DNA of 64,000 bases from Alphaproteobacteria bacterium UBA6411 (GCA_002438565.1 DJPN01000006.1:8544-72543); one strand, 5' to 3'; counted from the first letter of the stretch, positions 5,680-62,712 are shown. Made by a program: numbers and translations. The notes: generated by a model not told the origin, from the sequence alone.

Positions 5680-5684
5680 CTTTT

Positions 5685-19409: not shown

Positions 19410-19412
19410 TGC

Positions 19413-20210: not shown

Positions 20211-20430
20211 CGTTTTGTTCCCCGATTTCTTTAATCAGTTCAAGCGGGCTAACCCCCAGAAAATCAGCCAATTCTTTGACATTGCTTTTAACGGGAGTAT
20301 ATTTTTCGGATAGAATGTTCGACAGCTGCGCAGGGGTAATATTCAAGCAAGCCGCCAAATCCTTTAAAGATTCCAACTGCTTTTTTGCCATTAGCTCTTT
20401 CACCTTCAATCGGTTAATCACTAATTTCAT
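20203..20430 (-). CDS. Small HTH (XRE-family) regulator in the controller (C) protein position of the R-M operon
   Basis: About 75 aa. The HTH is LESLKDLAACLNITPAQLSNILSE. GAGGG SD before the ATG at 20430. Overlaps the downstream methyltransferase start by 8 nt. Confidence 0.6.
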   Translation of the reverse strand: MKLVINRLKVKELMAKKQLESLKDLAACLNITPAQLSNILSEKYTPVKSNVKELADFLGVSPLELIKEIGEQNDA

Positions 20431-20463
20431 TTTTACCCTCGGCAAATCAAAAATTCAAGTATT

Positions 20464-21132: not shown

Positions 21133-21133
21133 T

Positions 21134-21958
21134 TCATTCCCCTATTTTCAGTCCGTTCAAAAACTTGTCGAAGTCTTTGCCGTCGTAGTCTTCGATTTTG
21201 CCCGCGTCGCACATTTTTGCCGTTTCGGGGTTCATCGGCAGCTGGACGGTATACGGAATTGCGTATTTTCCCGCAATTTCAAAGATATGGCTTTCCCCGA
21301 AAATATAATGCTTTTTATGGCAGTCGGGACATTCAAAGTACGCCATGTTTTCGACGATTCCCAAAACGGGAACGTTCATTTTGTTCGCCATTTTGACCGC
21401 TTTTTCGACAATCATCGAAACCAATTCCTGCGGCGACGTTACAATCACGATGCCGTCGACGGGAATCGACTGAAACACGGTCAGCGGCACGTCGCCCGTT
21501 CCGGGGGGCATATCGATAAACATCACGTCGACATCGCCCCAGACGACATCCGTCCAAAACTGTTTGACCGTTCCCGCAATCACGGGACCGCGCCACAGCA
21601 CGGGGTCGGTGTCGTTTTCAAGCAGCATGTTGACGGACATGATTTCAACGCCCGATTTTGTTTCGGCGGGAAAAATGCCGCTGTCGTTGCCCATCGCCTT
21701 TTGCGTCACGCCGAACGTTTTGGGAATTGAGGGCCCCGTAATGTCCGCGTCCAAAACAGCGGTTTTCAAGCCTTTTTTCCGCGCTGCAACCGCCAGCATG
21801 CTTGTCACCGACGATTTGCCCACGCCGCCTTTGCCGCTGACAACCGCAATGACTTTTTTGACATGCGAATCCGTGTTCGATTTGGCAATCAAATCCTCTT
21901 TGCCGCGTTCCGAACAATGGTGCGAACAGGTTGAACAGTTATGCAAACATTCCGCCAT
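21134..21958 (-). CDS. apbC: Mrp/ApbC/NBP35-family iron-sulfur cluster carrier ATPase
   Basis: 274 aa. Deviant Walker A GKGGVGKSS, CxxC near the C-terminus, and an N-terminal Cys cluster (CSTCSHHC). Confidence 0.85.
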   Translation of the reverse strand: MAECLHNCSTCSHHCSERGKEDLIAKSNTDSHVKKVIAVVSGKGGVGKSSVTSMLAVAARKKGLKTAVLDADITGPSIPKTFGVTQKAMGNDSGIFPAETKSGVEIMSVNMLLENDTDPVLWRGPVIAGTVKQFWTDVVWGDVDVMFIDMPPGTGDVPLTVFQSIPVDGIVIVTSPQELVSMIVEKAVKMANKMNVPVLGIVENMAYFECPDCHKKHYIFGESHIFEIAGKYAIPYTVQLPMNPETAKMCDAGKIEDYDGKDFDKFLNGLKIGE

Positions 21959-21959
21959 T

Positions 21960-23123
21960 TCATTTTTCCTTTATCAAATCCAAAATCGCGTCGGCGGCTT
22001 TTTGGCTGGGCGTTTCAGCCCCGTCCGCCCCCAGCATTTTCAGCACGTCGAATGCGCCGTTCACTTCGGCGTCTTTGTACGCTTCATCCGTCAAAAGCTT
22101 TTCGACTTCCGCCGCCAAAAGGTCTGGTTTGCAGTCCTCCAGCAAATATTCTTTGACGATTTCCTTGTCCGCCAAAATGTTGACCAAGTTCGCATACTTG
22201 CCGCTGACCAGTTTGCGCGCCAAAAACGATGAAACGGGGTTCATTTTGTACGCAATCGTGTAGGGAACTTTCGCCATCGCCAGTTCCAAAGCGACCGTCC
22301 CCGACGCCGCCAAAGCCGCGTCCGCCGCCGCAAAAGCGTCATACCGCGCCGTTTCACCCGTCACGACAATGACGGGCAAAGCCCAGTCCTTGACCGCCGC
22401 CTTGACCGCGTACTGCACCGTCGCAACCGTCGGTACGACGATTTTCATATCGGGGTGTTTTTGCGCCAGCAAAGCGACCGTATCTTTGAACACAGGCAGC
22501 AAGTATTTGATTTCCGACCGTCTGCTGCCCGGCAGAACGCACAGCAGCTTTTCATTTTCGGCAATGCCGTGTTCGGCGCGGAAAGCCGCCCCGTTTCCTT
22601 TTGCCGCGCCGCCCTCGACAACGGGATGACCGACAAAATCGACTTTCAAGCCGTAGGGCGTAAAGTATTTCGCTTCATACGGCAACAAAGCCAGAAGCAA
22701 ATCAATGTAGCGTCCGCACGTTTTCGCGCGCCCCTTTTTCCACGCCCACACTTGCGGGGCGACGTAATGCACCTGCGGAATCCCCGTGTGCAAAGAGCGC
22801 AAGCCTTGATTGACCCGCACTGAAAAGCTCCAGCTGTCGACGGTAACGACAACGGCGGGCTTTTTGGCAACAATGTCGTCGACCGTTTGACGGATGCGCG
22901 CCATAATGCGCGGAATGGACGGAATGACCTCTGCCAAACCCATCACCGCCAGTTCCGACGAATCGAACAGGCTTTCAAAGCCCTGTTCCGCCATGGTTTC
23001 ACCGCCGACGCCCGCAAAGCGGACTTTTCCGCCCGTTTTTTCACGCAGGGCTTTCATCAGCCTTGAAGCCAGCAAATCGCCCGACGGTTCGCCCGCAATC
23101 AGATAAATCAGTCTTTCTTTCAC
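21960..23123 (-). CDS. lpxB: Lipid-A-disaccharide synthase
   Basis: 387 aa. GEPSGD N-terminal motif. GT-B fold (GT19). Confidence 0.9.
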   Translation of the reverse strand: MKERLIYLIAGEPSGDLLASRLMKALREKTGGKVRFAGVGGETMAEQGFESLFDSSELAVMGLAEVIPSIPRIMARIRQTVDDIVAKKPAVVVTVDSWSFSVRVNQGLRSLHTGIPQVHYVAPQVWAWKKGRAKTCGRYIDLLLALLPYEAKYFTPYGLKVDFVGHPVVEGGAAKGNGAAFRAEHGIAENEKLLCVLPGSRRSEIKYLLPVFKDTVALLAQKHPDMKIVVPTVATVQYAVKAAVKDWALPVIVVTGETARYDAFAAADAALAASGTVALELAMAKVPYTIAYKMNPVSSFLARKLVSGKYANLVNILADKEIVKEYLLEDCKPDLLAAEVEKLLTDEAYKDAEVNGAFDVLKMLGADGAETPSQKAADAILDLIKEK

Positions 23124-36007: not shown

Positions 36008-36168
36008 TTTTATCCTCTTTTTCCGGTTAAACCTCCGCGGGTTGTTGAGGCGGGAACCCTCCCGCCACCGGAGCGATTTTCCCCTTGCGAAGAAATCCGC
36101 CTGTACCCGCGTGTGAAATCGGGTTGTTTTTACCCTGTTTTTTTTCCTTTTGCAAGCGTTTTGTTCAA

Positions 36169-50665: not shown

Positions 50666-51955
50666 ATGAAAAACGATACTTTTCTGGGACACCCCAAAGG
50701 GCTTTTTTTGCTGTTCGCCTCCGAATTGTGGGAGCGTTTTTCTTTCTATGCCCTGCGCTCTGTGCTGGTTTTATACTTGACCGCCTTGACGGTTGACGGC
50801 GGATTGGGGTGGAGCAAAACAAACGCTTTGCGGCTGTACGGCATTTATACGGGATTGATTTATGTCACGCCTTTAATCGGCGGCTGGCTGGCTGACAATA
50901 AACTGGGGCAACGCAAAGCCGTTTTAATCGGCGCAATGCTGATGGCGGCTGGACAGTTCGTTTTATCGGCAATCAACGGCGGATTGTACGCCGGACTGTC
51001 TTTGCTGATTTGCGGAAACGGACTGTTCAAGCCCAATATTTCAACCATGGTCGGCGATTTGTACGATCCGAACGACAACCGGCGGGACAGCGCGTTTACG
51101 ATTTTTTACATGGGAATCAATATCGGGTCGTGTCTGGCCGGCATTGCCGCGGGAATTGTGTCCGCCGCTTATTCGTTCAAAGCGGCTTTTTTCGTTGCGG
51201 GATTGGGAATGTTAGCCGCTTTGGGACTGCAAGCTTTCTTTGCAAAACATTATTTGGGAAGCATCGGAACGCTTCCCGCGGCAAAAAAAGCGGTTGCGGA
51301 AAATAAAACCGCCCTTTCCGAACAGGAAACCGATCATCTGCGCGCCTTGCTGGTTTTAGGGGTGTTCTCGGTTGTTTTTTGGGCGGGTTTTGAACAAGCG
51401 GGCGGATTGTTGAATTTATTCGCTACGGAACAAATCAACCGCACGGTCGCGGGCGTGACTGTGCCGGCCGCTTTTTTCCAGTCGCTGAATCCGTTTTTTA
51501 TTATTGTTTTGGCGCCGCTGTTCGCATGGATTTGGGTAAAACTGGGGGACAAAGACCCAAGCTTTACCGCAAAATTCATTCTTGCTTTGATTTTTTCGGC
51601 AACCGGTTTTTTGTTCATGCTGTTTGCGGCTTGGCAAAGCCGCGACGGATCAAAAGCGTCAATGATATGGCTGATAGCCACTTATCTTTTTCACACAATC
51701 GGCGAGTTGTGCCTGTCACCGACAGGGCTGTCCATGGTGGCGCGGCTTGCCCCCGCGCGGTGTTTGTCGCTGATGATGGGCGTGTGGTTCTGTTTTTCAG
51801 CTTTGGCGAATTTCATAGCGGGCTTCGTCGGGTCGTTTTTGGACGATTGGGGTGTTCTGCCGATTTTTGCCGTCCTGCTTGCCGTCAATGCGATTGCGGC
51901 TTTTACGCTGTGGGCTTTGTCGGGAAAACTGACCCGCTGGATGCGTAAATGTTAA
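50666..51955 (+). CDS. Proton-dependent oligopeptide transporter (POT/PTR2 family, DtpT-like). Possibly C-terminally shortened.
   Basis: 429 aa. ExxERFxYY-type N-terminus (ELWERFSFYALRSVLVLYL) and FKPNIS motif (GNGLFKPNISTMVGDLY). Its 3' end overlaps, convergently, the end of the first prophage gene. Confidence 0.85.
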   Translation: MKNDTFLGHPKGLFLLFASELWERFSFYALRSVLVLYLTALTVDGGLGWSKTNALRLYGIYTGLIYVTPLIGGWLADNKLGQRKAVLIGAMLMAAGQFVLSAINGGLYAGLSLLICGNGLFKPNISTMVGDLYDPNDNRRDSAFTIFYMGINIGSCLAGIAAGIVSAAYSFKAAFFVAGLGMLAALGLQAFFAKHYLGSIGTLPAAKKAVAENKTALSEQETDHLRALLVLGVFSVVFWAGFEQAGGLLNLFATEQINRTVAGVTVPAAFFQSLNPFFIIVLAPLFAWIWVKLGDKDPSFTAKFILALIFSATGFLFMLFAAWQSRDGSKASMIWLIATYLFHTIGELCLSPTGLSMVARLAPARCLSLMMGVWFCFSALANFIAGFVGSFLDDWGVLPIFAVLLAVNAIAAFTLWALSGKLTRWMRKC

Positions 51956-53097
51956 AAGCCGGCGTCAATTTCGTCTTGAGTTTGACGTAAATCCAGCAAA
52001 GGCCGCCTTGACGTTTCATTAAAAACTGGAACCGCTTTACAGCGGCAGTTGTACGCTTCGCCGGGGTTGCCGCCTGCAGGGGGATTTTCCGCATCAAAAA
52101 CACCGCCGTTGCGTTCGGCATGTTCCGCACGGACTCTGTCGTCATTTTGCGTTTCCCAAACGTACAGCGGCGCGTCAGCCGCTATATTCAGCAAAGCGGT
52201 TAAATTTTTATAGTCCTCCTTGGCTTCAAAATGATGTTTTACGACTTCGACTAATTTGTCATGTTCCTCTCCGTGTTCAAACAAATAAGCCGAACTGTTT
52301 AGAACATCGTTCAAATCCTTATCGGACAACATGCGGATTTCCGTCGGATCCGGCATTTTCAGCGCCGTTCCGGGAATTAAATGACGCACATCCGTCAACT
52401 GCGGATTTTTATGCAGGATTTCTTCGGGGGCGATGTTGTTTTCCTTGGCAATATTAAAAATCGTATCACCGGCTTTGACAATGTGGAGCTTTTCGATTAA
52501 GTCCTTGCGTTCATAGCGGTTCAGTTTTGCACGGTTGTTGAACACTTCGCGTTCCAAATCCGATTTTTTCAGATCTGTTCCATACTTGTCAAACAAATAC
52601 ATCCCCAGATTGACCGCGTTCGCATCCGTATTTTTATCACCGATAACATTGTTGAAATGACCATTTGCAACATCGTTTAAACGTCCTGCTATATCTAAAT
52701 TCCAGCCATAAACATCACTTAGTTTTCCTGCATAACCATAATGGATATTCGACCAAATATCATGGTCATACAGATATTTGTTATCCCCCGGAATCATCGT
52801 CCCGAAAACCGTAGCGGGTCGTCCTTTCGCATTTGTCAATTTTTTATGAAAATACGATGAAATGTGCTTTTTTAAAACAGGTTTGTGATCCCATTTTGCG
52901 TTACTACGCGCCAGAAAAAGCATCATCTTATTTTTGATAATTAAATTACTTTTTTGTATGTTTTCGACATCTTTGTCCTGCTGTCGAAGCTTCATTTCAT
53001 TAAAAATGCCCGTTACAGCTTTTTCATAATCCGATGATTTCGGATTTAAATGTTTGAATCCTTCATGTTTTGGTATATCATAAGTAGTCATCTTCAT
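51952..53097 (-). CDS. Phage protein with an unknown N-terminal domain, a central LysM peptidoglycan-binding domain and a C-terminal Mu gpF-like (head-morphogenesis/minor head protein) motif. The second ATG at 53091 is the likelier start.
   Basis: 381 aa. LysM: HIVKAGDTIFNIAKENNIAPEEILHKNPQL..LIPGTALKMP. MuF-like: ..YVWETQNDDRVRAEHAERNGGVFDAENPPAGGNPGEAYNCRCKAV.. (the DDRxRxxH...G.VF...PP...NCRC pattern). AAGGAAA SD. Confidence 0.7.
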   Translation of the reverse strand: MKMTTYDIPKHEGFKHLNPKSSDYEKAVTGIFNEMKLRQQDKDVENIQKSNLIIKNKMMLFLARSNAKWDHKPVLKKHISSYFHKKLTNAKGRPATVFGTMIPGDNKYLYDHDIWSNIHYGYAGKLSDVYGWNLDIAGRLNDVANGHFNNVIGDKNTDANAVNLGMYLFDKYGTDLKKSDLEREVFNNRAKLNRYERKDLIEKLHIVKAGDTIFNIAKENNIAPEEILHKNPQLTDVRHLIPGTALKMPDPTEIRMLSDKDLNDVLNSSAYLFEHGEEHDKLVEVVKHHFEAKEDYKNLTALLNIAADAPLYVWETQNDDRVRAEHAERNGGVFDAENPPAGGNPGEAYNCRCKAVPVFNETSRRPLLDLRQTQDEIDAGF

Positions 53098-53134
53098 TTT
53101 CCTTTCAGAGGTTAGAGTTGTTTAATTTTCAAAA
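53020..53134. repeat. Direct repeat, copy 1 (about 115 bp; covers the RBS and the first ~25 codons of the LysM/MuF gene)
   Basis: Near-identical to 53595-53709 (a handful of substitutions and one single-base indel). Confidence 0.85.
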
Positions 53135-53189
53135 TTATAAATTTTTAAAAAAATTTGGACTTAAAATTTTGTCATTATCTATTTTGGTT

Positions 53190-53591
53190 ATGATTTCATT
53201 TTTTTCTTATGAGATTTTTTTAGGCTTCAATAAAAGCCTATCATATTTATTAAATTTAATATTGTATTTGTCATTGTGTTATATTTTCCTTAGAACCACT
53301 TCACATTCTACAAGCAATAAAAAAAATACTGTATTCGTTACACTCTTATTGGCAATAGAATTGCTATTATCGGATATATTCTCATTTTTTATATTTGTTG
53401 TGCTTCCTATCGATGTTCCATTTAAGATAGACTACACTCTATCACTCATAATACCGGCAATATTTACAGCTATACTATTTAACTCGTTTAAACCAAGAAA
53501 AATACTATTCACAATAACACTAATAATACTTCTGCTTCCAATTTATTATCCTTTCATTGCCCATTTTCTTAATCTTTATCAGATTGAATAA
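53190..53591 (+). CDS. Very AT-rich, highly hydrophobic polytopic membrane protein (4-5 TM), candidate immunity / superinfection-exclusion moron. An alternative TTG start at 53118 lies inside repeat 1.
   Basis: 133-157 codons, open in a region that looks well under 30% GC where stops are frequent. Composition dominated by L/I/F/S/K/Y. Sits exactly between the two 115-bp direct repeats; its stop is 3 nt before repeat 2. Confidence 0.5.
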   Translation: MISFFSYEIFLGFNKSLSYLLNLILYLSLCYIFLRTTSHSTSNKKNTVFVTLLLAIELLLSDIFSFFIFVVLPIDVPFKIDYTLSLIIPAIFTAILFNSFKPRKILFTITLIILLLPIYYPFIAHFLNLYQIE

Positions 53592-53594
53592 AAT

Positions 53595-53709
53595 TTTTTC
53601 ATAATCCGATGATTTCGGATTTAAATGTTTGAATCCTTCATGTTTTGGTATATTGTAAGCAGTCATCTTTCTTTTCCTTTCAGAGGTTTGCGTTGTTTAA
53701 TTTCAAAAA
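53595..53709. repeat. Direct repeat, copy 2. On the minus strand it starts a 48-codon orphan ORF whose first ~25 aa copy the LysM/MuF protein N-terminus.
   Basis: Minus strand reads ..AAAGGAAAAGAAAG ATG ACT GCT TAC AAT ATA CCA AAA CAT GAA GGA TTC.. (MTAYNIPKHEGFKHLNPKSSDYEK..), then diverges and stops after 48 codons, antisense to the 3' end of the membrane-protein ORF. Confidence 0.8.
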
Positions 53710-53849
53710 GTTCAAAAAATTCAAGTATTGTTCGCAACGCTGTTGATTGCATCTATTTTATTTCTTCCAAACACTTTGAAAATAATGGGAATTGTTATCA
53801 ATCTTATTTTTCCTTATACTCCATTTATTGAAGAGTAATCAAATTCCAT

Positions 53850-54071
53850 TCACCGCGCGCACAATCGGTCATAGACGATGTTGTTCATATCGATTTGCCG
53901 GATTGTTTGCGCGGTGTCATGATCGTAATCGGCGTAAATCGGCCGATACAGCTCACAAAACCCGCCGCTTGTAAGCGTCGTGCAGCCGCTTGACAACAGC
54001 AGGATTGTCCAAATCGGAACGTGCTTTGCGCGCCGCTGCCTCGGCTTTTGATTTTTTGTCGATTGTTTCAT
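53850..54071 (-). CDS. Outer-membrane lipoprotein, o-spanin (Rz1-like), overlapping the i-spanin gene out of frame
   Basis: 73 aa. Signal plus lipobox ..WTILLLSSGC. The start lies inside the upstream TM-anchored ORF. Confidence 0.6.
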   Translation of the reverse strand: MKQSTKNQKPRQRRAKHVPIWTILLLSSGCTTLTSGGFCELYRPIYADYDHDTAQTIRQIDMNNIVYDRLCAR

Positions 54072-54165
54072 TTTTTTCCTTTTGCCGTCCTGCCCGAAAA
54101 GCGAAAATCATTCCGCCGATCAGCAGGACGGCTTGAGCTGTCAGAATAACGGCTAAATCAGACAT
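53953..54165 (-). CDS. Small N-terminally TM-anchored periplasmic protein, i-spanin (Rz-like) candidate
   Basis: About 70 aa. MSDLAVILTAQAVLLIGGMIFAF TM segment, then a charged helical region. ATGTCTGA overlap with the upstream ORF. The o-spanin is embedded in its 3' half. Confidence 0.45.
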   Translation of the reverse strand: MSDLAVILTAQAVLLIGGMIFAFRAGRQKEKNETIDKKSKAEAAARKARSDLDNPAVVKRLHDAYKRRVL

Positions 54166-54349
54166 TTGTCTCTTTGCCGTCATTGATTTTGGCATTGACG
54201 ATGGACAACACGTCCAATATTTTGACGATTTTTGCCAATACGGCATCGTCTTTTTGCGTCGGGGTCGCTTTGACGATGATTGACGCCGCCGCAACAACCG
54301 TTCCGAACCAAAACAGCACGGTTTCAAAGATTTGTCCCAAGTTTTCCAT
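54158..54349 (-). CDS. Small single-TM protein in the lysis cassette (second holin/antiholin or spanin component)
   Basis: 63 aa. MENLGQIFETVLFWFGTVVAAASIIV.. AAGGAAAAG SD. Between the endolysin and the spanins. Confidence 0.45.
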   Translation of the reverse strand: MENLGQIFETVLFWFGTVVAAASIIVKATPTQKDDAVLAKIVKILDVLSIVNAKINDGKETNV

Positions 54350-54824
54350 GACTTTTCCTTTCGTGTAACAATAAATCGGGGCGGAAATCAACCCGCCCCG
54401 TCGAAAACAATTCGGCTTCGCGCCTTCGCCGCAGTTTCAAACCCTTCCACACATAACCGCCCGCATAAACCCAGCGCATCAGTTCTTGCGGCACTTTGTC
54501 GTAAGCCCCGTCGTTCAGCACGCGCAGCAAAGTCGATCCTGCGAAGTTCCGCCGCCCGATATTGAAAGCGAACGAAATCAGCGCGTCTTTTTGACATTGT
54601 TTCAGCGGCACTTTAACCAGTTCCGCCACCGCGGCTTCCGCTTCGGCGACATCTTGGCGCAACAGTTCTTCGGCTTTTGCTTCGCTGACCCCTGCAGGAA
54701 AGCTTTCACCGCCTTTGACTACGTGACCGTAACCGATTGTGCGCCTGCCCGCGACACAAGTGTATTCCAGCGGCACAAAGCTTTCAAAAGCCTTGAGCAT
54801 AGCCAGTCCTTTTTTGCTTATCAC
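54324..54824 (-). CDS. Phage endolysin, GH24 lysozyme (P22 gp19 / T4 lysozyme family)
   Basis: 166 aa. ..ISKKGLAMLKAFES..TIGYGH..FNIG..FAGSTLLRVLN..LRRRREAELF.. closely parallels the P22 lysozyme. GTG start overlaps the holin stop (GTGA). Confidence 0.9.
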   Translation of the reverse strand: MISKKGLAMLKAFESFVPLEYTCVAGRRTIGYGHVVKGGESFPAGVSEAKAEELLRQDVAEAEAAVAELVKVPLKQCQKDALISFAFNIGRRNFAGSTLLRVLNDGAYDKVPQELMRWVYAGGYVWKGLKLRRRREAELFSTGRVDFRPDLLLHERKSHGKLGTNL

Positions 54825-54985
54825 GCGCGCTCCCCTTGGTTTTTAAACAGAAAGTAAACGCGCCCGACGGCATAAACCAGCGTCGCAATTCCGATAAAGA
54901 AACCGACGTATTCGTTGAATACGCCAATCCACGCGGGGGCGGTCAAACCGATGCCGACCGCCCCTGCCTCTTTGACATTTTGCAT
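54821..54985 (-). CDS. Holin candidate (54 aa, two predicted TM helices)
   Basis: Below the track's ORF size threshold. MQNVKEAGAVGIGLTAPAWIGVFNEYVGFFIGIATLVYAVGRVYFLFKNQGERA. AGGAGGGG SD 7 nt upstream. Immediately precedes the endolysin. Confidence 0.55.
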   Translation of the reverse strand: MQNVKEAGAVGIGLTAPAWIGVFNEYVGFFIGIATLVYAVGRVYFLFKNQGERA

Positions 54986-54997
54986 TGTTTTCCCCTC

Positions 54998-55369
54998 CTA
55001 CATGAACGTGTCCAGCAAAGACAGCGAGTACTTCAGCTTTGCGGCCTTTTTTTCCGCGCGCGCTTTTCGCATTGAGCGGTACGCTTCACCAACCGCCTGC
55101 TTTTTGTTAAATTCCGCCTCCTGCTCGGTTTTCAAATCATTGTAAAACAAGGCATCGTCGTACGAATTCGCCTTGACGCCCGAAGCCCCGATAAGTGCCA
55201 GATTTTTGCCGCGTTCTTCGTTGTTTTCGCGGCGCAGCTTTTTTTCATCCCACGCGTTTTTATCCAATGAAGCCCGAGCCTCATCCCGCGCATCTAGGTA
55301 AGCAAGTTTCGCCTTTTTCCAATTCTGCCGAACGGTCAGCAGTTTTCCCGCCGTTTTCAGTTTTTCCAT
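54998..55369 (-). CDS. Hypothetical charged phage protein in the position, and of the size, of T7 gp13
   Basis: 123 aa from the ATG at 55369 (MEKLKTAGKLL..). GGAGGA SD 5 nt upstream, directly after the tail tubular B stop. Confidence 0.5.
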   Translation of the reverse strand: MEKLKTAGKLLTVRQNWKKAKLAYLDARDEARASLDKNAWDEKKLRRENNEERGKNLALIGASGVKANSYDDALFYNDLKTEQEAEFNKKQAVGEAYRSMRKARAEKKAAKLKYSLSLLDTFM

Positions 55370-55379
55370 TTCATCCTCC

Positions 55380-57374
55380 TCATATTTTGTTTGCCGCCAC
55401 CACCGGGAACACACCCAATACAGTCAGCGGCAAAGGTTGATTTTGTTCAATTCTGACGGATACTCCGTTTTCCCACCCGCCCGAATACGCGACTTTTTTG
55501 TCGCCGGTAAACAAAGCCGGCGCTTTTCCCATGACATCGCTGATTTGCCGAAACGACAAAGGCTCGCCCGTTTTTTCCAACCCGATTTTAAAGCCGATGC
55601 TTTTGTATAAACGCACCAATACGGCGACAATGCGCTTTTTGGCAAATTCGCCGGCCACTCCGTTTGTCAAAGGCATTGTTTGTAAAACAGACCGGAACGG
55701 CAATCCGACATGCACGACGCCGGCCGCCGTATCCAGTGTAATTTTGCCGTCTGTTACCGTCTTTTCGTTCTGCACCGCGCCGTCGGCCAAAACGGCAACC
55801 GTCTGCCCTTCCAAGTATTCAAGCCCCGAAATTACCGACACTTTATCCCCGCGATACGACGCACCGCAATCCACGAAAAAAGCTTCCATGGAATTTTCGG
55901 CATCTTCGGGCAAGCCGGTTTCCATCACTTCGATGTAGCGGACGGCTTGTCCGTTGACAACACGGCGGACGATTAGATACAGCTCGTCTTTTTCCCCGTT
56001 TGCCGTCGGCAAAGACGCTATGCTTTCAACCTTTCCGTTTTCCGTTTGAAAAGTATGCCATGCGGAAACGGATTCTTCGGCTTCGTAAGTCAAACCCGCC
56101 AGTTTTCCGTTTTTCAGCAAACACCACACAACGGGAACGGGTTCTTGCTGCAAGGCCATTTCTTTGATGCCGCCGAACGTCATGTGCGGCGCCAAAGTCG
56201 TCACATCGCGCGCAACATAGTCGTCCGAAGAGCTGTCGTACTGAAAAGCGCGCACTTTCCGGCCGTAATGCTGAACGAACAAAGTCGCATGACTGACTTT
56301 GACGGGCTGAACGGCCTCGCTGCCAAAGCTTGAGTGTCGCTGCACTTTCACATTCAGCGGCAAAGACGTGTCCCCGCTTGTCGCCGTCAGTGTAAAATCA
56401 GCCCCGACAGTGCCGATGGCCAAAGCTCTGCCGGACGACAGCCAGCAAATATCGTTGATTTGATCGGACGACAATTCGCATCCGTAGCCGTATTCCGCCG
56501 TCACACTTGCATCGGCGGCCGTCGGGGAAAAGATTTCATATTGTCCGACTTTCGACCCGTAAACGCTGTTGCCTTTGCCCAAAACCAGTCTTTGCTCAAA
56601 AAAAGTCACGGCGTTCGCATATCCCGTTGTTTTTGAAAACGCGCCCAAACGCCAAAACTTCGTCGCCGTCGCCGACAAAAAAGGATAGCCGTCTGTCCCG
56701 ACCGCTTTGACAACAGTCGCCCCGACATATTCCGTGATTGTCGCGCACCCCCATTGCACATTGGGTTTGTTTGCGTGCATTAAGCGCACTTGACGGCCGA
56801 CATCCGTTGCCTTGAACACCCCTGCGGAAGCCGTCAAAGTCATCGCCCCGGACAGTGCGGAGGGCGTAATCGAAATATTTTCCGCATTGACGGGCAAATA
56901 CGGACCGTCCATCATTGCAAAGTCCGACAACCGCCAATCCGTCATTCCGTATCGCGTCAAAGTCTTTAACGGAAAATCCTTGTGCGCAATGAAAACGACA
57001 TCCCCCGATTGGGAAAAATACAAACCGTCCAAATCCGCCTCCGCATACGGAGATTTGATTTCATAGGTCGCGCCGTTGCTCAGCACGGGTTGCCCGTGAT
57101 CGAAAAAACGGATGTATTTATCACCGAATTCCAGCAAATAAGCCTGCGTTACGGAAAACTGAAAAGCATACAGACGCGCTTTTTTGTTATTGTCTTTGAC
57201 TGCAGAAACAAAGCGCGTTCCGCCGCGTCTGGATACCGGCCCCTGCACCGACGGAATAAAGTTCTGCAAAACCTGACACGCGCCGCCGTATTCCTCGGTG
57301 TCAATGCGACCGCTCATCAAATCGGATATTTCCCCCGTATTGAAACGGACAAAGCCCAAAGTATCCGCCATCAC
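55380..57374 (-). CDS. T7 gp12-like tail tubular protein B
   Basis: 664 aa. N-terminal ..NTGEISDLMSGRIDTEEYGGACQVLQNFIPSVQGPVSRRGGTRFV.. parallels T7 gp12 (..NLKGGISQQPD..RYPDQGSRQVNGWSSETEGLQKRPP..). Follows the tubular A gene with an ATGA overlap. Confidence 0.65.
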   Translation of the reverse strand: MMADTLGFVRFNTGEISDLMSGRIDTEEYGGACQVLQNFIPSVQGPVSRRGGTRFVSAVKDNNKKARLYAFQFSVTQAYLLEFGDKYIRFFDHGQPVLSNGATYEIKSPYAEADLDGLYFSQSGDVVFIAHKDFPLKTLTRYGMTDWRLSDFAMMDGPYLPVNAENISITPSALSGAMTLTASAGVFKATDVGRQVRLMHANKPNVQWGCATITEYVGATVVKAVGTDGYPFLSATATKFWRLGAFSKTTGYANAVTFFEQRLVLGKGNSVYGSKVGQYEIFSPTAADASVTAEYGYGCELSSDQINDICWLSSGRALAIGTVGADFTLTATSGDTSLPLNVKVQRHSSFGSEAVQPVKVSHATLFVQHYGRKVRAFQYDSSSDDYVARDVTTLAPHMTFGGIKEMALQQEPVPVVWCLLKNGKLAGLTYEAEESVSAWHTFQTENGKVESIASLPTANGEKDELYLIVRRVVNGQAVRYIEVMETGLPEDAENSMEAFFVDCGASYRGDKVSVISGLEYLEGQTVAVLADGAVQNEKTVTDGKITLDTAAGVVHVGLPFRSVLQTMPLTNGVAGEFAKKRIVAVLVRLYKSIGFKIGLEKTGEPLSFRQISDVMGKAPALFTGDKKVAYSGGWENGVSVRIEQNQPLPLTVLGVFPVVAANKI

Positions 57375-57928
57375 AGCCTCGCTTCCAGCCAGCCGCGCTG
57401 GGTATAGCCGTCTTGAACGCCTTCCATGGCCGAAGCGGTTTTCGCCTGTTGAACAAAAGCGTGATATTCCTTGTTCAATGTTTCTTTCAGCGCAACCGAC
57501 GCCGTCAGCGGAACGGCAAGCTCCGCCGCCAGTTTCAGCGCCAGCGCCTCGACAAACATCGGATCGAAAAACGTTGCGTCCTCAATGCGTGAAATGCCGA
57601 CAAAACGCAGTATCGGCGCGTTGTACAAAACAGTCTGTCCTTCGACTTGATAGTTTTCCTCCTCTTCCGTCCGCCAAACACGCAAGCAATCCGCAGGTAA
57701 AGCAAATCTGTATTCATAACCGTACAGCGGTTTGTCTTTCAGCGGAGCCAAAGCATAACGCTTCAGCGCGAACCGCCAAGGGTACGACCGCAATACGAAA
57801 TCGCGCGTATCCGCATACAAAGCTTTGCAGTAACGGGCGGGTTTAGTATCGTCGTCCAGCGACAAAATCACAGGTTCATCGCCGATTTTCGATAAAGCGC
57901 GATTGCACAAAGCAACGATTGAAGTCAT
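57371..57928 (-). CDS. T7 gp11-like tail tubular protein A
   Basis: 185 aa. ..NRALSKIGDEPVILSLDDD.. and ..SYPWRF.. parallel T7 gp11 (..NDILASIGEPPVSTLEGD.. / ..SRGWTF..). Confidence 0.65.
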   Translation of the reverse strand: MTSIVALCNRALSKIGDEPVILSLDDDTKPARYCKALYADTRDFVLRSYPWRFALKRYALAPLKDKPLYGYEYRFALPADCLRVWRTEEEENYQVEGQTVLYNAPILRFVGISRIEDATFFDPMFVEALALKLAAELAVPLTASVALKETLNKEYHAFVQQAKTASAMEGVQDGYTQRGWLEARL

Positions 57929-57990
57929 TTTCTGCTCCTTTCACAACAAAAAAGCGGCGGAGATTTCTCCCCGCCGTTTGACAAGCAAAA

Positions 57991-58896
57991 TCATTCTTTG
58001 CAGTTGATTTTAACGACCAGCTCTTCCTGCATGCGGGTCGCGCCGATAGCCATTTCATAGTAAACCTGCGTCGCAAAGCATTTGTCGTCACGTTCCGTGA
58101 TTTTTCCGATGATATCCTCACCGATGCCCAGTTTGATGCCGTCGCTCTGGAATGCCAGACACGAACGCCCCACGGCCGCGGGACTGTCGCCCGTTGACAT
58201 CACCGTCGGCAAAATCAGCGAACCGTCCGCTTTTTTCGCATTCAGCTGAACAAACTTAAAGCCCATGAATTCCTCGATTTCCCCGCGGACAAGAGCTTTC
58301 GCGGCAGCGTAATCGGCTGATGTCACTTTCGTTTCACTCAGCAAATCGTCCAGCTGCTGAGCGGACAGAACGATATAGCGCCCTTCGGACGGCGCATCGT
58401 TTTTGTCAAACAGCCGCTTGACTTCGCGCAGTTTGTCGAACGTGAATTTGGAAGCGCACGCCGCATCGACAATCTGCGACGCCGGCAAAGCAACTTCCGT
58501 CGCCCCCGTTTCGCCGGTATACGCCGCCCCCAAAGCGGCTTCGACGATTGCTTCATCAATCGCGCGCCCCATCGCCCAAGCGGCGGCGTTCGCATAATCG
58601 TTCGTCGGATCGATAAGCATGCGCACTTTGTCGTCGTTGTCGATTAAATCCGCCCAATGATAAGTGTCCAAACTCAAACGGCGGCGTTTGTGCGGCGTGT
58701 CGGACTGCGGAGTCGCGGCGTGGCGCGTCGTCTTTTTGACGGCGGCAACCTGCCCGATCTGGTCGATGAAAGCCGCCTTGCCGCGCACGCTTTCAAAACC
58801 GACCAAATTGCGCAATTTTGATCCTTTCTGCTGCACCAAAGCTTGAATGTTCGAGCTGTACTGGTCGACAAAAGAAGTGGTAATCTGTGTACTCAT
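57991..58896 (-). CDS. T7 gp10-like major capsid protein
   Basis: 301 aa. ..RGKAAFIDQIG.. / ..DTYHWADLIDNDDKV.. / ..AMGRAIDEAIVEAALG.. mirror the T7 gp10 blocks (..SGKSAQFPVLG.. / ..IDGLLTADVLIYDIED.. / ..AMAADGAVLAEIAG..). Confidence 0.65.
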   Translation of the reverse strand: MSTQITTSFVDQYSSNIQALVQQKGSKLRNLVGFESVRGKAAFIDQIGQVAAVKKTTRHAATPQSDTPHKRRRLSLDTYHWADLIDNDDKVRMLIDPTNDYANAAAWAMGRAIDEAIVEAALGAAYTGETGATEVALPASQIVDAACASKFTFDKLREVKRLFDKNDAPSEGRYIVLSAQQLDDLLSETKVTSADYAAAKALVRGEIEEFMGFKFVQLNAKKADGSLILPTVMSTGDSPAAVGRSCLAFQSDGIKLGIGEDIIGKITERDDKCFATQVYYEMAIGATRMQEELVVKINCKE

Positions 58897-58976
58897 TTAA
58901 TTTTCCTTTCTGTTTTCAATCAACAAAAAAAGCCCCGTTTCAAACGGAGCCGTTACAAAAAAACGTTTGCCCGAAA

Positions 58977-59504
58977 TCAGTCTTCGTTGAACAAACGCTT
59001 GCGCAAAGCGTAAACAGCCTGAACGGTTTTGGCGTGATCGGGATGCTGCGCCTGCATATAGGCCGGATTGGAAGTCAACCCCGCGATTTCGGCTTTCAGC
59101 CGATCGGCAGAGGGAACAACGGCCGATTTTTCACCCACCAATCCCCTGTCTTCGCCCGCCGCATCGGCCAGCCGCATTAAAAAAGCAACGATTTCGCGGC
59201 AGTTGCACAATCCCGTTTCGTTCAAAAATTCAACAAAGCCGTCACCGCCGTACTTGCGCACCAAATCCGCCGCGCCATTTCGTCTGCGGTCAAAATCGCG
59301 TCCGAATTGACGGCGCAATTCGGATTCGGCATCCTGCACGTATGTTTCGGAATCGTTATTCAGTTCTTCCGCAAATTCACGCACGCCGTCTTCAATCCAG
59401 CCCCAAACGCCGGCCTCCTGCCGTTCGTTCAATCCCAAACTTTCAGCCAAATCGTGGAATTCGGCCTTGTCTTCATCATCGATAAAGTCGTTTACGTTAC
59501 TCAT
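58977..59504 (-). CDS. Acidic scaffolding protein candidate
   Basis: 175 aa, strongly acidic. Lies between the portal and capsid genes, as T7 gp9 does. Confidence 0.45.
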   Translation of the reverse strand: MSNVNDFIDDEDKAEFHDLAESLGLNERQEAGVWGWIEDGVREFAEELNNDSETYVQDAESELRRQFGRDFDRRRNGAADLVRKYGGDGFVEFLNETGLCNCREIVAFLMRLADAAGEDRGLVGEKSAVVPSADRLKAEIAGLTSNPAYMQAQHPDHAKTVQAVYALRKRLFNED

Positions 59505-59769
59505 TGTTTTTCCTTTCAGCTTGTTGCAATAAAGTAATCAACCGCTTTTCATCGCAAGCGGTCATCTTCAATATATCCAGAAAAGCGGCGCGCTTTCCGT
59601 CATAGAACGCGCTTGTCGCAACGCCGGACACATCGGTTACAGGGGTCAGCATATGGCATTTGATTGCCAAATCCTCCAAAACCGCCTGCCCGTTTTCGGA
59701 TAAAAAAACAGCCTTGTAAGCTTGTACCAGCTCCAAGGCTTTTTTGGCTTTGTCCCGTCTGTCAAACAT
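59497..59769 (-). CDS. Small hypothetical phage protein (start taken at MFDRRDKAKK..)
   Basis: About 90 aa, between portal and scaffold. The track ORF start overlaps the portal gene's 3' end. Confidence 0.4.
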   Translation of the reverse strand: MFDRRDKAKKALELVQAYKAVFLSENGQAVLEDLAIKCHMLTPVTDVSGVATSAFYDGKRAAFLDILKMTACDEKRLITLLQQAERKNNE

Positions 59770-61249
59770 CGCCCTCCTCCCTTTGTCCCGTGTGAAGCAA
59801 ATCTTCCGAAATGCCGTACATTTCGGCAATTTTCCGCACTGTTTTCGGAACATCGAAAACACTTGCCGCGTCCGGCTGCAGTCTTAAAAAGCCTTCCGCC
59901 AGCTCCAATGTTTGAAGCATCGCCTGCGCTTCGACCTGCCTTTGCGCCAAAGACAGCGGCGACAAATACGACACCGCCGGCATTTTCCCGTGCAAAGAGT
60001 CGGGCAAAGGCGGCAGTTTCCCGTGCCGTATCAGCAGTCCGAACACACGCTCCATCATCGGCCCCAGCAGCTCCGTTTGAATACGCCCGAACACGGGACC
60101 CAACAACCGCATTTTTTCCTCGTTTCTGTGCAAAACTTCGGTTGCGGTCATCGCGGCGTCTTTGGTCGTCATCAAAACGTCGTTGTAAAAAGCGGTGCGA
60201 AGTCTGGCTCGGATTTCGTTCATCATATCCAGCCCTATGCTTGAATTCGCTCCCGACGAAAACGGCTTCGGCGGCTCTCCGTTATAGCGGATGACTCCGC
60301 CCGGAACAGTCGCCAGCGGAGAAAACTGATCATCGTCGCGCACCAGCACGGGCGGACGGTTTGCCAGCTGAGCCGCTATCAGCGTTTCCCTCATCATCTC
60401 CTGCAGCATTTTTATGTCGGGCAAAGCCGAAAAAGCCGGCGACCGGCCGTACACTTCGCCGCTGGCTTTGCTCCAGCGCACAACGAACAAAGGCATTTCG
60501 TCAAACCCGCCGGAAAACAAGACCGTTTGGCTGTCTTTCAGCACATACGCCGATAAAACGGGCTTTTGAAAAACAGCTCCCTTTTCATACAGCGGATTAG
60601 GCAAAACAGCGTGAATGATTTCACATTCTTCTTCCTTCCCTTGCGAAAACAAAGTTTTCAACCGCTCGGGCAAAACATCCGTTCCCCATGTTTTAACGAT
60701 TTTCGACACGGGCAAACGAAATACGCGGTAAACCTCGTCCACCTGCCCCGCCGCGTTTTCGGAAATGAACAGTTCGCCCAAAAAACGGGACTGAAACAAC
60801 AAACAATCCTTGTCTTCGTTCCATCCGACATACAGTCCTGCCGTCCCCAGCACCGCCAAATCCAAATAAACTTCGTGGATATTGGTCGCAAAAGCCGCCG
60901 CCGGCTTTGCGATTTCATCGGCAATGATCCGTTCCGCCTGTTCCAACCATCGGCGGACAGGCTTGCTGTCGGACATGCCCGCTGTTTGCAAAGCAAACCA
61001 CTTTCCCGCGGGATTTGTCATCAATCCGTGCAGCCCCGCCGCCAGCAGTTCCGCCGCGTTGACGGCCGTGGTCTCGAACAGCTTGCGCGTTCGGGGCGTT
61101 CCAGCCGTCTGAGCAACCGTAAAATCGGCTTTTCGCGGCAGGACAAGCTCGGAAATTTCCTGCCACGATTTTTCAAAATTCAGACGATTGCTTTTCAAAG
61201 CGGCAACCTTGTCAGCCACCTGCTTTGCCAAAGAAACAATCTCTCTCAT
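59762..61249 (-). CDS. T7 gp8-like portal (head-to-tail connector) protein. Start taken at the ATG at 61249; the track ORF extends to 61357.
   Basis: About 495-531 aa. ..TPRTRKLFETTAVNAAELLAAGLHGLMTNPAGKWFALQ.. parallels T7 gp8 (..TPWQAVGARGLNNLASKLMLALFPMQTWMRL..). Size matches the T7 portal. Confidence 0.65.
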   Translation of the reverse strand: MREIVSLAKQVADKVAALKSNRLNFEKSWQEISELVLPRKADFTVAQTAGTPRTRKLFETTAVNAAELLAAGLHGLMTNPAGKWFALQTAGMSDSKPVRRWLEQAERIIADEIAKPAAAFATNIHEVYLDLAVLGTAGLYVGWNEDKDCLLFQSRFLGELFISENAAGQVDEVYRVFRLPVSKIVKTWGTDVLPERLKTLFSQGKEEECEIIHAVLPNPLYEKGAVFQKPVLSAYVLKDSQTVLFSGGFDEMPLFVVRWSKASGEVYGRSPAFSALPDIKMLQEMMRETLIAAQLANRPPVLVRDDDQFSPLATVPGGVIRYNGEPPKPFSSGANSSIGLDMMNEIRARLRTAFYNDVLMTTKDAAMTATEVLHRNEEKMRLLGPVFGRIQTELLGPMMERVFGLLIRHGKLPPLPDSLHGKMPAVSYLSPLSLAQRQVEAQAMLQTLELAEGFLRLQPDAASVFDVPKTVRKIAEMYGISEDLLHTGQREEGDV

Positions 61250-61250
61250 C

Positions 61251-61574
61251 TTACAGCCCCAACAAGCTTTTGCGTCCGCCCAATCCGACAGAACTGTTTC
61301 CGCCCAGCAATCCCGCAAAAACCACTTTGGATTTTTTGCCGCGGCGGCGTTTTTCATCCAACTGATTTAAAAAGTCATTTTCTTCCGCGGCGGCGGCCTG
61401 TTCAACGGCTTGTTCCGCCGCCTGCTGTTTTCCCTGTTCAATTTGATTGTTTTCCCGCTTGGCGTCTTTGTAGCCGTGAACCGCCGCCGAAGCAAAGCCC
61501 GTAGTCATTCCCAAAATCAAAGCGGGATTGAGCATACGTTTGAAAATTTTGCTTGTAATTTTTTTCAGCTTCAT
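61251..61574 (-). CDS. Small hypothetical protein with an N-terminal hydrophobic segment and a Gly-rich C-terminus
   Basis: 107 aa. Its stop is 1 nt before the portal ATG. Confidence 0.4.
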   Translation of the reverse strand: MKLKKITSKIFKRMLNPALILGMTTGFASAAVHGYKDAKRENNQIEQGKQQAAEQAVEQAAAAEENDFLNQLDEKRRRGKKSKVVFAGLLGGNSSVGLGGRKSLLGL

Positions 61575-61695
61575 TTTTTTCTCCTTGAGTATAAAAAAAG
61601 ACGCCTGTAAAAACAGGCGCCTTCATACGCATCTAACGCATTGTATTAACAATATGTCATAATTTTTTCTAATTGTCAATACATTTTGTTATATT

Positions 61696-62712
61696 TTATT
61701 TGCTCATTCCCGCTTTGGCTTTCAAAACCGCAGGATTGACAACGGTTTTCTTGCCGCGATTTTCTTTCTTTTCCGCGATTTTTTCGGCAGCGGCGGCTTG
61801 GCGGTTTTCAATCGTCGGCAAAGGCAGCGCTTCCGGCACAATCCGTTTCGGCATATATGTAAAGTGCGGACGCATCACCAAATCCAGCTTGTTTTTCATT
61901 TCCTCGTTCTGGTCTTTGGAATAATCCAGCTTGTACGGCCGATAGCAGTTGGCATAAATATTGTTGAAGCGTTCAAACGAAACCGTTTTGGCATCATCCG
62001 TGCTGAAAAATTCTTGCGTTTCCTTTTCGGACAAATACGGCTTGCCGTTGCAGGTGCAGACTTTCTGCACCACGTCGTTCACGGGTACTTCCCGCATAAA
62101 AGCTTGATTTTCTTCTTCGCGCGTACAGTTGCGTTTGCGCTGACGCACCATTTGAATATACAGGCAGTCATAGCTGTCGCGGGTGCAGTAATCGGTGAAC
62201 CATCCTTTGAACGCGGCCTTGTACGCTTCGCCGTTTTCCAGTCCGCCGTTGACCGCGGCGTTTTGGAACGGATTGACGAAATGCGGATCTTTTTCGCGCA
62301 GGCTTTCCAGCGGTTTGTCGTTGCCCTGCAAAGCCAGCTCGTAACACGCGGCGCAAGACGTCGCGGACGCGTCGGCTTCAATGGCGGCTTGGTTTTGGAT
62401 GTAAGTTTTCGGCGTATCCAGCAAAGCATCCAGCAAAATGCCTTTTTGGAACTGTTGGGCGTGCCTCAATTCATGCGCCGCCGTTCCGATTAAACGGTCA
62501 TGGGAACTGGTCGGATTCAAACGCAAATGGTTTTTCACTTCGTCATACGAACCGTAAGCGCGCATCGCCCCGTCGAAAGCAACCGTTGTTTTGTGTTCAA
62601 CGGCATCCTCAATCAGCTGCTTGCCGATTTTGCTTTTCGCCAGTTCGTCCATCACGGCTTTGATGCGAGATTCTTCTTCTTCGTTTTCGGCTTTGATAAT
62701 AGGATATTCCAT
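61696..62712 (-). CDS. Putative zincin-like metallopeptidase-motif protein (HExxHxxQQ, DUF4157-like) with a Cys-rich C-terminal region
   Basis: 338 aa. ..LIGTAAHELRHAQQFQKG.. The C-terminal ~230 aa contain about 11 Cys (CAACYE, YCTRDSYDCLY, KVCTCNGKPY, ANCYRPY). Confidence 0.55.
   Translation of the reverse strand: MEYPIIKAENEEEESRIKAVMDELAKSKIGKQLIEDAVEHKTTVAFDGAMRAYGSYDEVKNHLRLNPTSSHDRLIGTAAHELRHAQQFQKGILLDALLDTPKTYIQNQAAIEADASATSCAACYELALQGNDKPLESLREKDPHFVNPFQNAAVNGGLENGEAYKAAFKGWFTDYCTRDSYDCLYIQMVRQRKRNCTREEENQAFMREVPVNDVVQKVCTCNGKPYLSEKETQEFFSTDDAKTVSFERFNNIYANCYRPYKLDYSKDQNEEMKNKLDLVMRPHFTYMPKRIVPEALPLPTIENRQAAAAEKIAEKKENRGKKTVVNPAVLKAKAGMSK

Follow-up and report, generated by a model that had tools for sequence, protein, structure and literature searches.

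The window analysed here is a 64,000-nucleotide (64-kb) stretch of the genome of Alphaproteobacteria bacterium UBA6411 (GCA_002438565.1, DJPN01000006.1:8544-72543), and its minus strand carries, at positions 53850-61574, a tight array of co-oriented phage-type genes, all with intact open reading frames (ORFs) and with a GC content (51-54%) equal to the host background. The gene order is p107-portal-Bbp19-scaffold-capsid-adaptor-nozzle-gp14-holin-lysozyme-63-aa transmembrane (TM) protein-i-spanin-o-spanin. The first gene of the operon (61251-61574) encodes p107, a 107-residue candidate for a small virion protein, a role suggested by the position of its gene just 5' of the portal gene (that of T7 gp7.3); it has a weak match to phrog_1320, 'host range and adsorption protein' (E = 0.004), and is kept at 32-81% identity in 27 loci. 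Next come the portal gene (59762-61249; 495 residues from an internal ATG, the start having been verified; PF12236, E = 7e-122; PDB 8CK0 portal, E = 6e-55), a gene for a 90-residue Bbp19-like small phage protein that is present in all loci (59497-59769; PF25181, E = 9e-13), and, between the portal and capsid genes, a gene for a 175-residue scaffolding-protein candidate (58977-59504; phrog_3742, E = 4e-17). The major capsid protein (57991-58896; 301 residues; PF19821, E = 1e-83) belongs to an HK97-fold family. Its gene is followed by those for tail tubular protein A, or head-tail adaptor, at the T7 gp11 position (57371-57928; 185 residues; phrog_394, E = 2e-52; PDB 8CK1_E 'Connector Protein', E = 7e-17) and tail tubular protein B, or nozzle, at the T7 gp12 position (55380-57374; 664 residues; phrog_376, E = 2e-197; PDB 8CK1_A 'Tail Nozzle', E = 7e-85). 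A gp14-like internal virion protein (54998-55369; 123 residues from an ATG or 138 from an upstream GTG; phrog_418, 'internal virion protein') is encoded directly after the nozzle, the same placement as in related phages; the window copy resembles PF24072 (T7_gp14) only weakly (E = 6e-4 to 1e-3), and 13 of 19 orthologues match this family, the best at E = 1.6e-7.

The lysis genes complete the array. A 54-residue protein with two hydrophobic or TM segments (54821-54985) is a holin candidate, as suggested by its gene lying immediately 5' of, and overlapping, the lysozyme gene; it is 49-100% identical in 26 loci. The endolysin is a 166-residue GH24 phage lysozyme (54324-54824; PF00959, E = 4e-39; phrog_7, E = 7e-46), and the 63-residue single-TM protein that follows (54158-54349; phrog_9685, E = 1e-10), kept in 28 loci, could be a second holin or an antiholin. 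The 70-residue i-spanin (Rz-like) candidate, with an N-terminal TM segment and a charged helix (53953-54165), starts at an ATG that overlaps the upstream stop codon (ATGTCTGA), and relatives have annotated genes of 66-69 residues at this position; the o-spanin (Rz1-like), a 73-residue lipoprotein with the lipobox LLSSGC, overlaps it in another frame (53850-54071; phrog_1275 'Rz-like spanin', E = 1.5e-7).

A first-pass annotation of the window had described positions 51952-62712 as one prophage remnant that joins a T7-like structural module to a P22-like lysis cassette. The protein sizes on which it relied (495, 301, 185 and 664 residues) are right, and the portal, capsid and tubular-protein identities hold up in the family matches given above. 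The gene set is of T7 type, but T7 itself is only weakly similar (portal entries 7Y1C/8DGF, E of about 1e-4, as compared with the podovirus entries 8CK0/8CK1 given above); gp15/gp16-type large core proteins are missing, as had been said, but gp14 is present; and the order holin, GH24 lysozyme, Rz and overlapping Rz1 does follow the P22 layout, which is, however, generic to many phages and implies no particular kinship with P22 gp13/19/15. The interval does not stand as a single unit, for the genes at its two ends, discussed further on, lie outside the conserved array.

The nearest cultured phages are the BcepC6B/BPP-1-like phages and the HTVC010P-type pelagiphages, with nozzle identities of 35-40%. 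In BcepC6B, the small and large terminase subunits (TerS and TerL) are encoded immediately 5' of the portal, and three internal virion proteins of 700-860 residues plus fibres lie between the gp14 homologue and the holins. Closer comparison is offered by two uncultured phages from the host group of the window. L033 is known from a contig of 13 kb, and L056 has a cI-like repressor, a primase and a Bro protein as neighbours; in both, the order is TerL, a small ORF, portal, Bbp19, scaffold, capsid, a 141-aa gene, adaptor, nozzle and large internal proteins. All of these phages share with the window a homologous, collinear portal-Bbp19-scaffold-capsid-adaptor-nozzle-gp14 series and late genes placed behind a promoter and terminators, and L033/L056 are 72-75% identical to the window in the capsid and 40% identical in the nozzle. 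In the phages, however, TerL lies directly 5' of the portal and the 141-aa gene follows the capsid, and there are also fibres, a repressor, a primase and three large internal virion proteins. All of these are absent from the chromosomal locus, where the scaffold candidate is also shorter: it lacks the N-terminal part of the 219- to 221-residue phage versions and aligns only to residues ~100-219 of that of L056. Set against the phage gene order, the block thus starts exactly after TerL and skips from gp14 to the lysis genes.

Within the 64 kb, tblastn with BcepC6B and L033 phage proteins found no homologue of TerS, TerL, fibre or large internal proteins at E <= 1; the BcepC6B queries included TerS/TerL and gp13-gp19, and the phage-specific proteins of L033/L056 were likewise without a match at this threshold, so the missing functions are not concealed nearby. 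Family searches of the block's own genes found no integrase, primase or other replication gene, or lysogeny gene, and no att-like direct repeats or tRNA-fragment duplication flank the block, the sole real repeat in its vicinity being internal to an accessory toxin cassette. The first-pass annotation was therefore correct that terminase, fibre and integrase are missing from the block; the prospect it raised, that terminase and fibre genes might lie just outside, is not borne out in the window, and these genes stand instead singly or in pairs amid housekeeping genes elsewhere in the chromosomes of related genomes (see below). With no terminase, full core, fibre, lysogeny or replication genes in 64 kb, the block is not a complete or inducible T7-like or BPP-1-like prophage; with no integrase, primase or att site, and with a position that is fixed across species, it does not resemble a phage satellite of the PICI, cf-PICI or P4-like kind; and since conservation is strongest in capsid, portal, scaffold and TerL, it is not a tailocin. 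An exact-protein lookup returned no record of an identical copy of the window nozzle, megablast of the block against 50,697 phage genomes gave no match, and a capsid scan of IMG/VR brought up distant phages and one 4-kb piece of this element but nothing else.

The same array is found well beyond this genome. A nozzle protein search yielded 37 clusters at 55-90% identity, all 663-668 residues long and on contigs of up to 387 kb, and their contexts repeat the array gene for gene, adjoining tgt-dciA-thioredoxin-ATP synthase. When one genome per GTDB species was scanned, the collinear ~7.8-kb cluster was present in 22 species-level genomes from gut and rumen, on contigs of up to 566 kb, besides many metagenome contigs; in a tblastn matrix no gene between p107 and the spanins is missing, and their order is the same throughout. 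Apart from one split nozzle gene, in CAG:977, the ORFs of these clusters are intact. The carriers are metagenome-assembled genomes (MAGs) labelled Alphaproteobacteria (human-gut HGM/UMGS, UBA, and rumen RGIG/RUG) plus 'Acetobacter sp. CAG:977', and the comparative data consist of MAGs and metagenome contigs throughout. The far-side flank varies: in the CAG:977-like lineage it is tig-clpP-clpX-lon, and in the window these four genes lie at 44-50 kb, with tRNAs, a POT transporter and an accessory insertion intervening before the cluster.

Substitution rates point to strong constraint. The ratio of nonsynonymous to synonymous substitutions (dN/dS; Nei-Gojobori method, NG86; ten genome pairs, with dS saturated in the deeper ones) is 0.02-0.04 for the capsid, as compared with 0.02-0.05 for the housekeeping gene tgt, and takes values of 0.06-0.11 for the portal, 0.04-0.13 for the adaptor, 0.05-0.13 for the nozzle, 0.09-0.15 for the scaffold, 0.05-0.25 for the gp14-like gene, 0-0.11 for the holin and 0.07-0.17 for the lysozyme. 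For most genes it is 0.02-0.15; the small p107, Bbp19-like and spanin genes are higher, up to ~0.4 and in single pairs ~0.5 (p107 mostly 0.09-0.27, with a single pair at 0.50). The capsid is 79-98% identical among the 22 species, and its mean pairwise identity of 0.87 nearly equals that of tgt (0.88). Divergence of the element's genes follows that of tgt (pairwise Pearson r of 0.75-0.93), a co-divergence that is measured against this one gene and not against a full host phylogeny. Protein identities of 55-90% together with this co-divergence exclude recent horizontal copying of one sequence.

Insertions within the array were seen in some relatives. In CAG:977 (L032), a 483-residue histidine kinase (HisKA and HATPase_c) in the same orientation is inserted between the scaffold and capsid genes, and in three related genomes a 440-aa ORF with no assigned function lies between the capsid and adaptor genes; the coordinates of these observations are 5555-7006 and 8116-9441 in L032, 8115-9437 in L028, and 24-497 in L027.

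Upstream of p107, the array is preceded by a compact regulatory cassette, also on the minus strand. In the window, the promoter region (61649-61689) comprises the palindrome ACAAAATGT (61681-61689), a -35 element TTGACA (61674-61679), a 17-nt A-rich spacer and a -10 element CATATT (61651-61656), which overlaps a second ACA-N3-TGT copy and is followed by GTTAAT. Every head locus has, 5' of p107, the near-invariant series ACAAAATGTrTTGACA, 12 A-rich nucleotides and TATGACATATTGTTAATACA; a promoter scan of the window gave a 10/12 match, and the promoter positions are invariant in a 20-locus alignment in which synonymous sites are saturated. Between the promoter and the ribosome-binding site (RBS) and ATG (at 61574) lies an intrinsic terminator with a 12-bp stem and U7 (61597-61624; minimum free energy -24.6 kcal/mol, z = -4.25), with a small hairpin 5' of it (~61625-61641). 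The terminator covaries, 7 of 10 stem pairs staying paired through double changes across 20 loci; a search of the leader against Rfam gave no family at gathering score and only chance-level matches at E <= 1. Two further intrinsic terminators flank the capsid gene: a hairpin and T-run between scaffold and capsid (58931-58951), at the same place in all loci compared, and one between capsid and adaptor (57955-57976), kept in all loci with compensatory stem changes. The leader terminator and the two capsid-flanking ones together imply control by antitermination, for which the processive antiterminator Q of lambdoid phages is a precedent. In the Caulobacter gene transfer agent (GTA), the binding element of GafZ lies between the -35 and -10 elements, and GafZ lets RNA polymerase bypass terminators within the GTA cluster (PMC11150451).

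A search with the TerL of phage L033 retrieved 432- to 441-residue proteins at 67-71% identity on long chromosomal contigs. Three of the contexts were read, and in each a solitary terminase gene stands amid housekeeping genes: after mraZ-rsmH-ftsL-ftsI-murEF / amidase / ybaK in L043 (CAAGCB01) and L045 (JAFZYY01), and after acnB-icd-gltA-fic in L046 (CAVCSV01). Each of these genomes also carries the head locus (L024 with L043 in CAAGCB01, L015 with L045 in JAFZYY01, and L013 with L046 in CAVCSV01), and L013 belongs to the window's own species group (nozzle identity 88%). Like the phage enzymes, the chromosomal TerLs have intact Walker A (HRRAGKDS), Walker B-like (VVFSE) and nuclease motifs; they are mutually 77-87% identical with dN/dS of 0.07-0.13 and have no cognate TerS or pac context adjacent; judged by motifs and constraint, the chromosomal TerL looks functional. 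The CAVCSV01 record is titled 'Limosilactobacillus gorillae', but its contigs have alphaproteobacterial synteny and an element 88-98% identical to that of the window, so the bin probably bears a wrong label or is contaminated.

In L043, TerL is followed by a 296-residue T7-type fibre (PF03906) and a Phage_tail_APC chaperone. The fibre and chaperone recur as a two-gene unit, alone amid host genes, in L047-L051, and the family comprises >100 clusters on contigs of up to 652 kb; the N-terminal, tail-binding part of the fibre is conserved (63-78% identity) and the C-terminal part is variable (29-53%). In L028 and L032 the fibre gene follows tig-clpPX-lon-hupB-tRNA. A fibre gene 3' of lon was also considered for the window and rejected, as the equivalent place holds proS, lolDE and dnaE. 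In these two CAG:977-like loci (L028, ~20700-21540; L032, ~20700-22018), two terminators precede the fibre gene, which lacks its own cassette promoter; transcription from the tRNA promoter may continue into it. As a separate observation, a 198-residue serine recombinase of the Resolvase family is encoded directly 5' of the fibre and chaperone unit in L047-L049 (7058-7654); it is a possible invertase of the Gin/Cin type, which would switch the specificity of the fibre.

The lone TerL and fibre units share the arrangement of the head locus, that is, TTGACW, 17-19 nt, CAWWAT, GTKAT, a short leader, a terminator, an RBS and an ATG. A composite regular expression for promoter, T-run and ATG, written after the cassettes had been read, was run over both strands of 1.08 Mb of fetched sequence and gave 37 matches. 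Each of them marks the start of a locus of one of the three types, and the rest of the sequence had none. It should be noted that 33 of the 37 are head and TerL starts that had been used as templates, several of them near-identical copies, and that the remaining four are non-template fibre starts (L048, L049, L050 and L051); the pattern recovers the fibre starts of L043, L047-L049 and L050/L051 and leaves L028, L030 and L044/L045 unmatched. The informative outcome of the scan is the lack of matches elsewhere. As a stand-alone regulon marker, the 9-mer ACAWAWTGT was rejected: it has 6 sites in the window against 2.7 expected and is therefore unspecific alone, unlike the composite of promoter and terminator, which is specific. 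Related phages likewise put promoters and terminators before their late genes (in L033/L056, TTGAC promoters and then terminators precede TerL), with a late promoter consensus of TTGACnGATGCnAC-T8 as against TTGACW...TATGACATWWTGT in the chromosomal cassette.

In neighbor-joining trees, which carry no support values, the chromosomal nozzles group together to the exclusion of phage sequences, with phages L033/L056 in the sister group, and all TerLs of the chromosomal length (432-441 residues; three were confirmed to be chromosomal) fall into a single clade next to the phage TerLs. The data show that an ancestor related to the temperate podophages L033/L056 was endogenised once. The retained genes are split over at least three loci, namely a head-tail-lysis locus, a lone large terminase and a short T7-type fibre with its chaperone, all of them vertically inherited under strong purifying selection; the loci examined have no genes for replication, lysogeny or large ejection proteins.

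Taken together, these data make us highly confident that the block belongs to a selected, vertically inherited multi-locus element. The alternative that the first-pass annotation had itself offered, a domesticated particle-forming element, is strongly supported by synteny in 22 species, purifying selection, and dispersed TerL and fibre loci that share the cassette. With moderate confidence, we propose that the block is the head-tail-lysis locus of a chromosomally fixed, podovirus-derived, multi-locus GTA-like 'viriform' of uncultured gut and rumen Alphaproteobacteria, and we consider it somewhat probable that the element works as a DNA-packaging particle of the GTA type. The main argument for DNA packaging as the selected function is that TerL is motif-intact, detached from any TerS or pac context, and under purifying selection. 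Of the six criteria in the current definition of GTAs (PMC9662315), the three that can be read from sequence are all observed here: particle proteins of caudoviricete descent (homology of portal, capsid, adaptor, nozzle, gp14, TerL and the T7-type fibre), full endogenisation over multiple loci (three locus types amid housekeeping genes, with no integrase or att site), and vertical inheritance with co-diversification (synteny, the correlation with tgt, and the exclusive nozzle clade). The further criteria are random host DNA in the particles, an own genome that is not fully packaged, and delivery to cells (Kogay et al., 2022; PMC9662315). With the loci on different contigs, packaging of the whole set in one headful seems implausible.

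If the element works in this way, its default state would be off, and a processive antiterminator or activator from elsewhere, comparable to lambdoid Q or GafZ, would be required to switch it on. Upon induction in some cells, procapsids would form on the portal with the help of the shortened scaffold and be loaded with host DNA by the free-standing TerL; the adaptor, nozzle and fibres would attach next, and holin, endolysin and spanins would lyse the producer. In T7, gp14 is a component of the outer-membrane pore. As gp14 alone is kept from the ejection apparatus, delivery would probably halt at the periplasm and rely on uptake functions of the recipient, as for RcGTA; this last step is pure inference.

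Several points weigh against this proposal. The TerL and fibre loci were seen in related genomes, the window's own genome being represented by 64 kb, and the co-occurrence of loci within a genome rests on MAG binning, with TerL matched in three genomes and the fibre in one. No TerS, regulator, or replacement for gp15/gp16 was identified in the loci examined, and a particle without the gp15/gp16 ejection proteins may be unable to deliver DNA. In L032 (CAG:977), the nozzle gene is split into parts of 396 and 290 residues and foreign genes sit inside the operon, so the system can decay and is not immutable. Finally, particle formation, DNA content, transfer and expression are predictions from the genes.

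Two sets of neighbouring genes bear on the alternatives. Downstream of the array, positions 51952-53850 are an accessory, lineage-specific insertion with a GC content of 31-43%, found only in the closest relatives (L011/L013/L014). It contains a minus-strand gene for a 381-residue protein (51952-53097) with an Ntox44 domain (residues 64-171), a LysM domain (205-249) and a MuF core (312-355), and, on the opposite strand, a 157-residue multi-TM ORF (53118-53591) that matches no known family. A 122-nt direct repeat (53020-53141 and 53595-53716, 90% identical) duplicates the 5' end of the toxin gene and leaves a truncated orphan start. The 381-residue protein could be a head-loaded toxin with its immunity gene alongside. 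Described MuF polymorphic toxins have an N-terminal MuF domain, a C-terminal variable toxin and a downstream immunity gene (PMC5576092). The gene in the window resembles them in combining an SPP1 gp7-like MuF core with Ntox44 beside phage head genes, in its cassette-like duplication, and in having a small adjacent ORF as immunity gene candidate; it differs in that its domain order is reversed (toxin N-terminal, MuF core C-terminal, LysM between), in that its match to the Pfam MuF model is confined to the final ~45 residues of the model, and in that the putative immunity ORF is on the opposite strand and of no known family.

Upstream of the array's promoter, a separate transcription unit on the minus strand (61696-62712) encodes a DUF6782 putative metallopeptidase with an HExxH motif (PF20573, E = 1.5e-55). 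The gene lies immediately 5' of the head locus in 22 of 26 loci and is absent between tgt and p107 in L015, L017, L018 and L021; because of its absence in these four loci and its place outside the transcription unit, it was rejected as a core member. It is conceivable that DUF6782 is an ImmA/IrrE-like regulatory protease. In HGM16793, two DUF6782 paralogues lie 2-5 kb from the TerL/fibre locus (L043, 16652-18457). Elsewhere in the window, positions 18351-21132 form a low-GC (40-42%) island with a D12-class adenine methyltransferase, an N6/N4 methyltransferase and an IceA-like endonuclease, that is, a restriction-modification module, and the minus strand at 36008-36115 has an Rfam rpsB sRNA/leader (RF01815, 49.7 bits) upstream of a ribosomal protein region, an ordinary feature.

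Of the other explanations, the one that survives best, though we consider it unlikely, is an element that is silent until a temperate podophage of the L033/L056 type, on infection or induction, supplies a late antiterminator; it would then either parasitise the phage, as a fixed satellite with its own capsids, or serve the population as a defence through premature lysis and decoy packaging. The promoter and terminator layout is as in the late operons of the related phages, HGM16795 carries both the element (L028) and phage L033, and no host-encoded regulator was found in the loci examined. However, the phage late promoter consensus (TTGACnGATGCnAC-T8) is unlike the chromosomal cassette; integrase, replication and helper-interference genes are absent; a PADLOC run on ten of the proteins matched no defence family; and this element, unlike the mobile satellites, keeps its synteny and diverges together with its host. 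A particle with a role other than DNA transfer strikes us as quite improbable, be it toxin or protein delivery or bacteriocin-like killing with the Ntox44-LysM-MuF protein as cargo, or programmed lysis with hitch-hiking structural genes. A toxin-domain protein with a MuF core is indeed encoded directly 3' of the lysis genes in the window and its closest relatives, MuF toxins have been proposed to travel in phage heads (PMC5576092), and the lack of gp15/gp16 ejection proteins would be a handicap to DNA injection; but the toxin gene is absent in 19 of the 22 species and thus cannot account for conservation of the cluster, its domain order is the reverse of that of the described MuF toxins, a tailocin or pure lysis module could dispense with capsid, portal and scaffold, and the separately kept, motif-intact TerL under purifying selection argues that packaging is selected. 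Finally, the first-pass annotation's principal reading, a decaying T7-like prophage remnant whose ends were deleted and whose rest is non-functional DNA being lost, could point to the terminase, fibre, core-protein, integrase and replication genes missing from the block and to the split nozzle and foreign insertions of L032, but is effectively refuted, because neutral decay would not keep gene content and order identical in 22 species, every window ORF intact, dN/dS at 0.02-0.15 for most genes even where dS > 1, an upstream promoter with invariant positions, and a capsid conserved to the same degree as tgt.

Among known systems, the proposed GTA-like element has precedents both for its multi-locus organization and for antitermination control (PMC9662315, PMC11150451). 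Like RcGTA (Rhodogtaviriformidae) and the Caulobacter CcGTA, it consists of phage-derived structural genes fixed in the chromosome over several loci without a replication or integration module, is vertically inherited and co-divergent with the host under purifying selection, has holin and endolysin for release, and has a cluster with internal terminators, antitermination control being implied here and shown for GafZ (PMC9662315, PMC11150451). In contrast to these, it would be of independent origin from a podovirus of T7 architecture (PF12236 portal, adaptor, nozzle, gp14 and T7-type fibre) and not from a siphovirus-like HK97-type cluster, its TerL is separated from the head genes, and its lysis cassette lies inside the head-tail operon. 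The two-operon, podovirus-like FpGTA of Faecalibacterium prausnitzii has been described as the first GTA of that morphology and the first in the gut, and its packaging of host DNA was shown by long-read sequencing of virus-like particles (PMC12946183). It resembles the present element in its gut bacterial host, its predicted podovirus-like morphology and its more than one locus, with the head genes in one operon and receptor-binding protein, holin and endolysin chromosomal; it differs in host phylum (Bacillota), in its unrelated phage ancestry, and in that TerS and TerL are part of its head operon and its lysis genes accompany the tail operon. In either comparison, the element in these Alphaproteobacteria is known from its genes. 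In the literature searched, we found no description of a GTA or a domesticated podovirus in these gut Alphaproteobacteria; the element would be a new, independently derived, podovirus-type GTA-like system. More tentatively, and with somewhat greater doubt than confidence, we suggest that it represents a previously undescribed GTA family, a second, independent alphaproteobacterial invention of a GTA from a T7-architecture podovirus, wired through its cassettes by a dedicated antiterminator and handing over DNA at the periplasm with gp14 only.

The shared cassette provides a simple sequence signature for listing the full regulon and for tracking down its regulator. As only a handful of independent phage-to-GTA domestications are known, and mechanistic knowledge comes almost entirely from the siphovirus-type RcGTA and CcGTA, the element would, if our proposal is true, be an independent case of which phage functions stay, which go and which are rewired as a virus becomes a host organelle. 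It also illustrates that 'incomplete prophage' annotations can be one piece of a dispersed functional system. An entire clade of uncultured gut and rumen Alphaproteobacteria carries the element in fixed form, with its structural genes constrained and the capsid at the level of tgt, and, if it works as proposed, the element would constitute a capsid-mediated route of gene exchange in a poorly known gut lineage.

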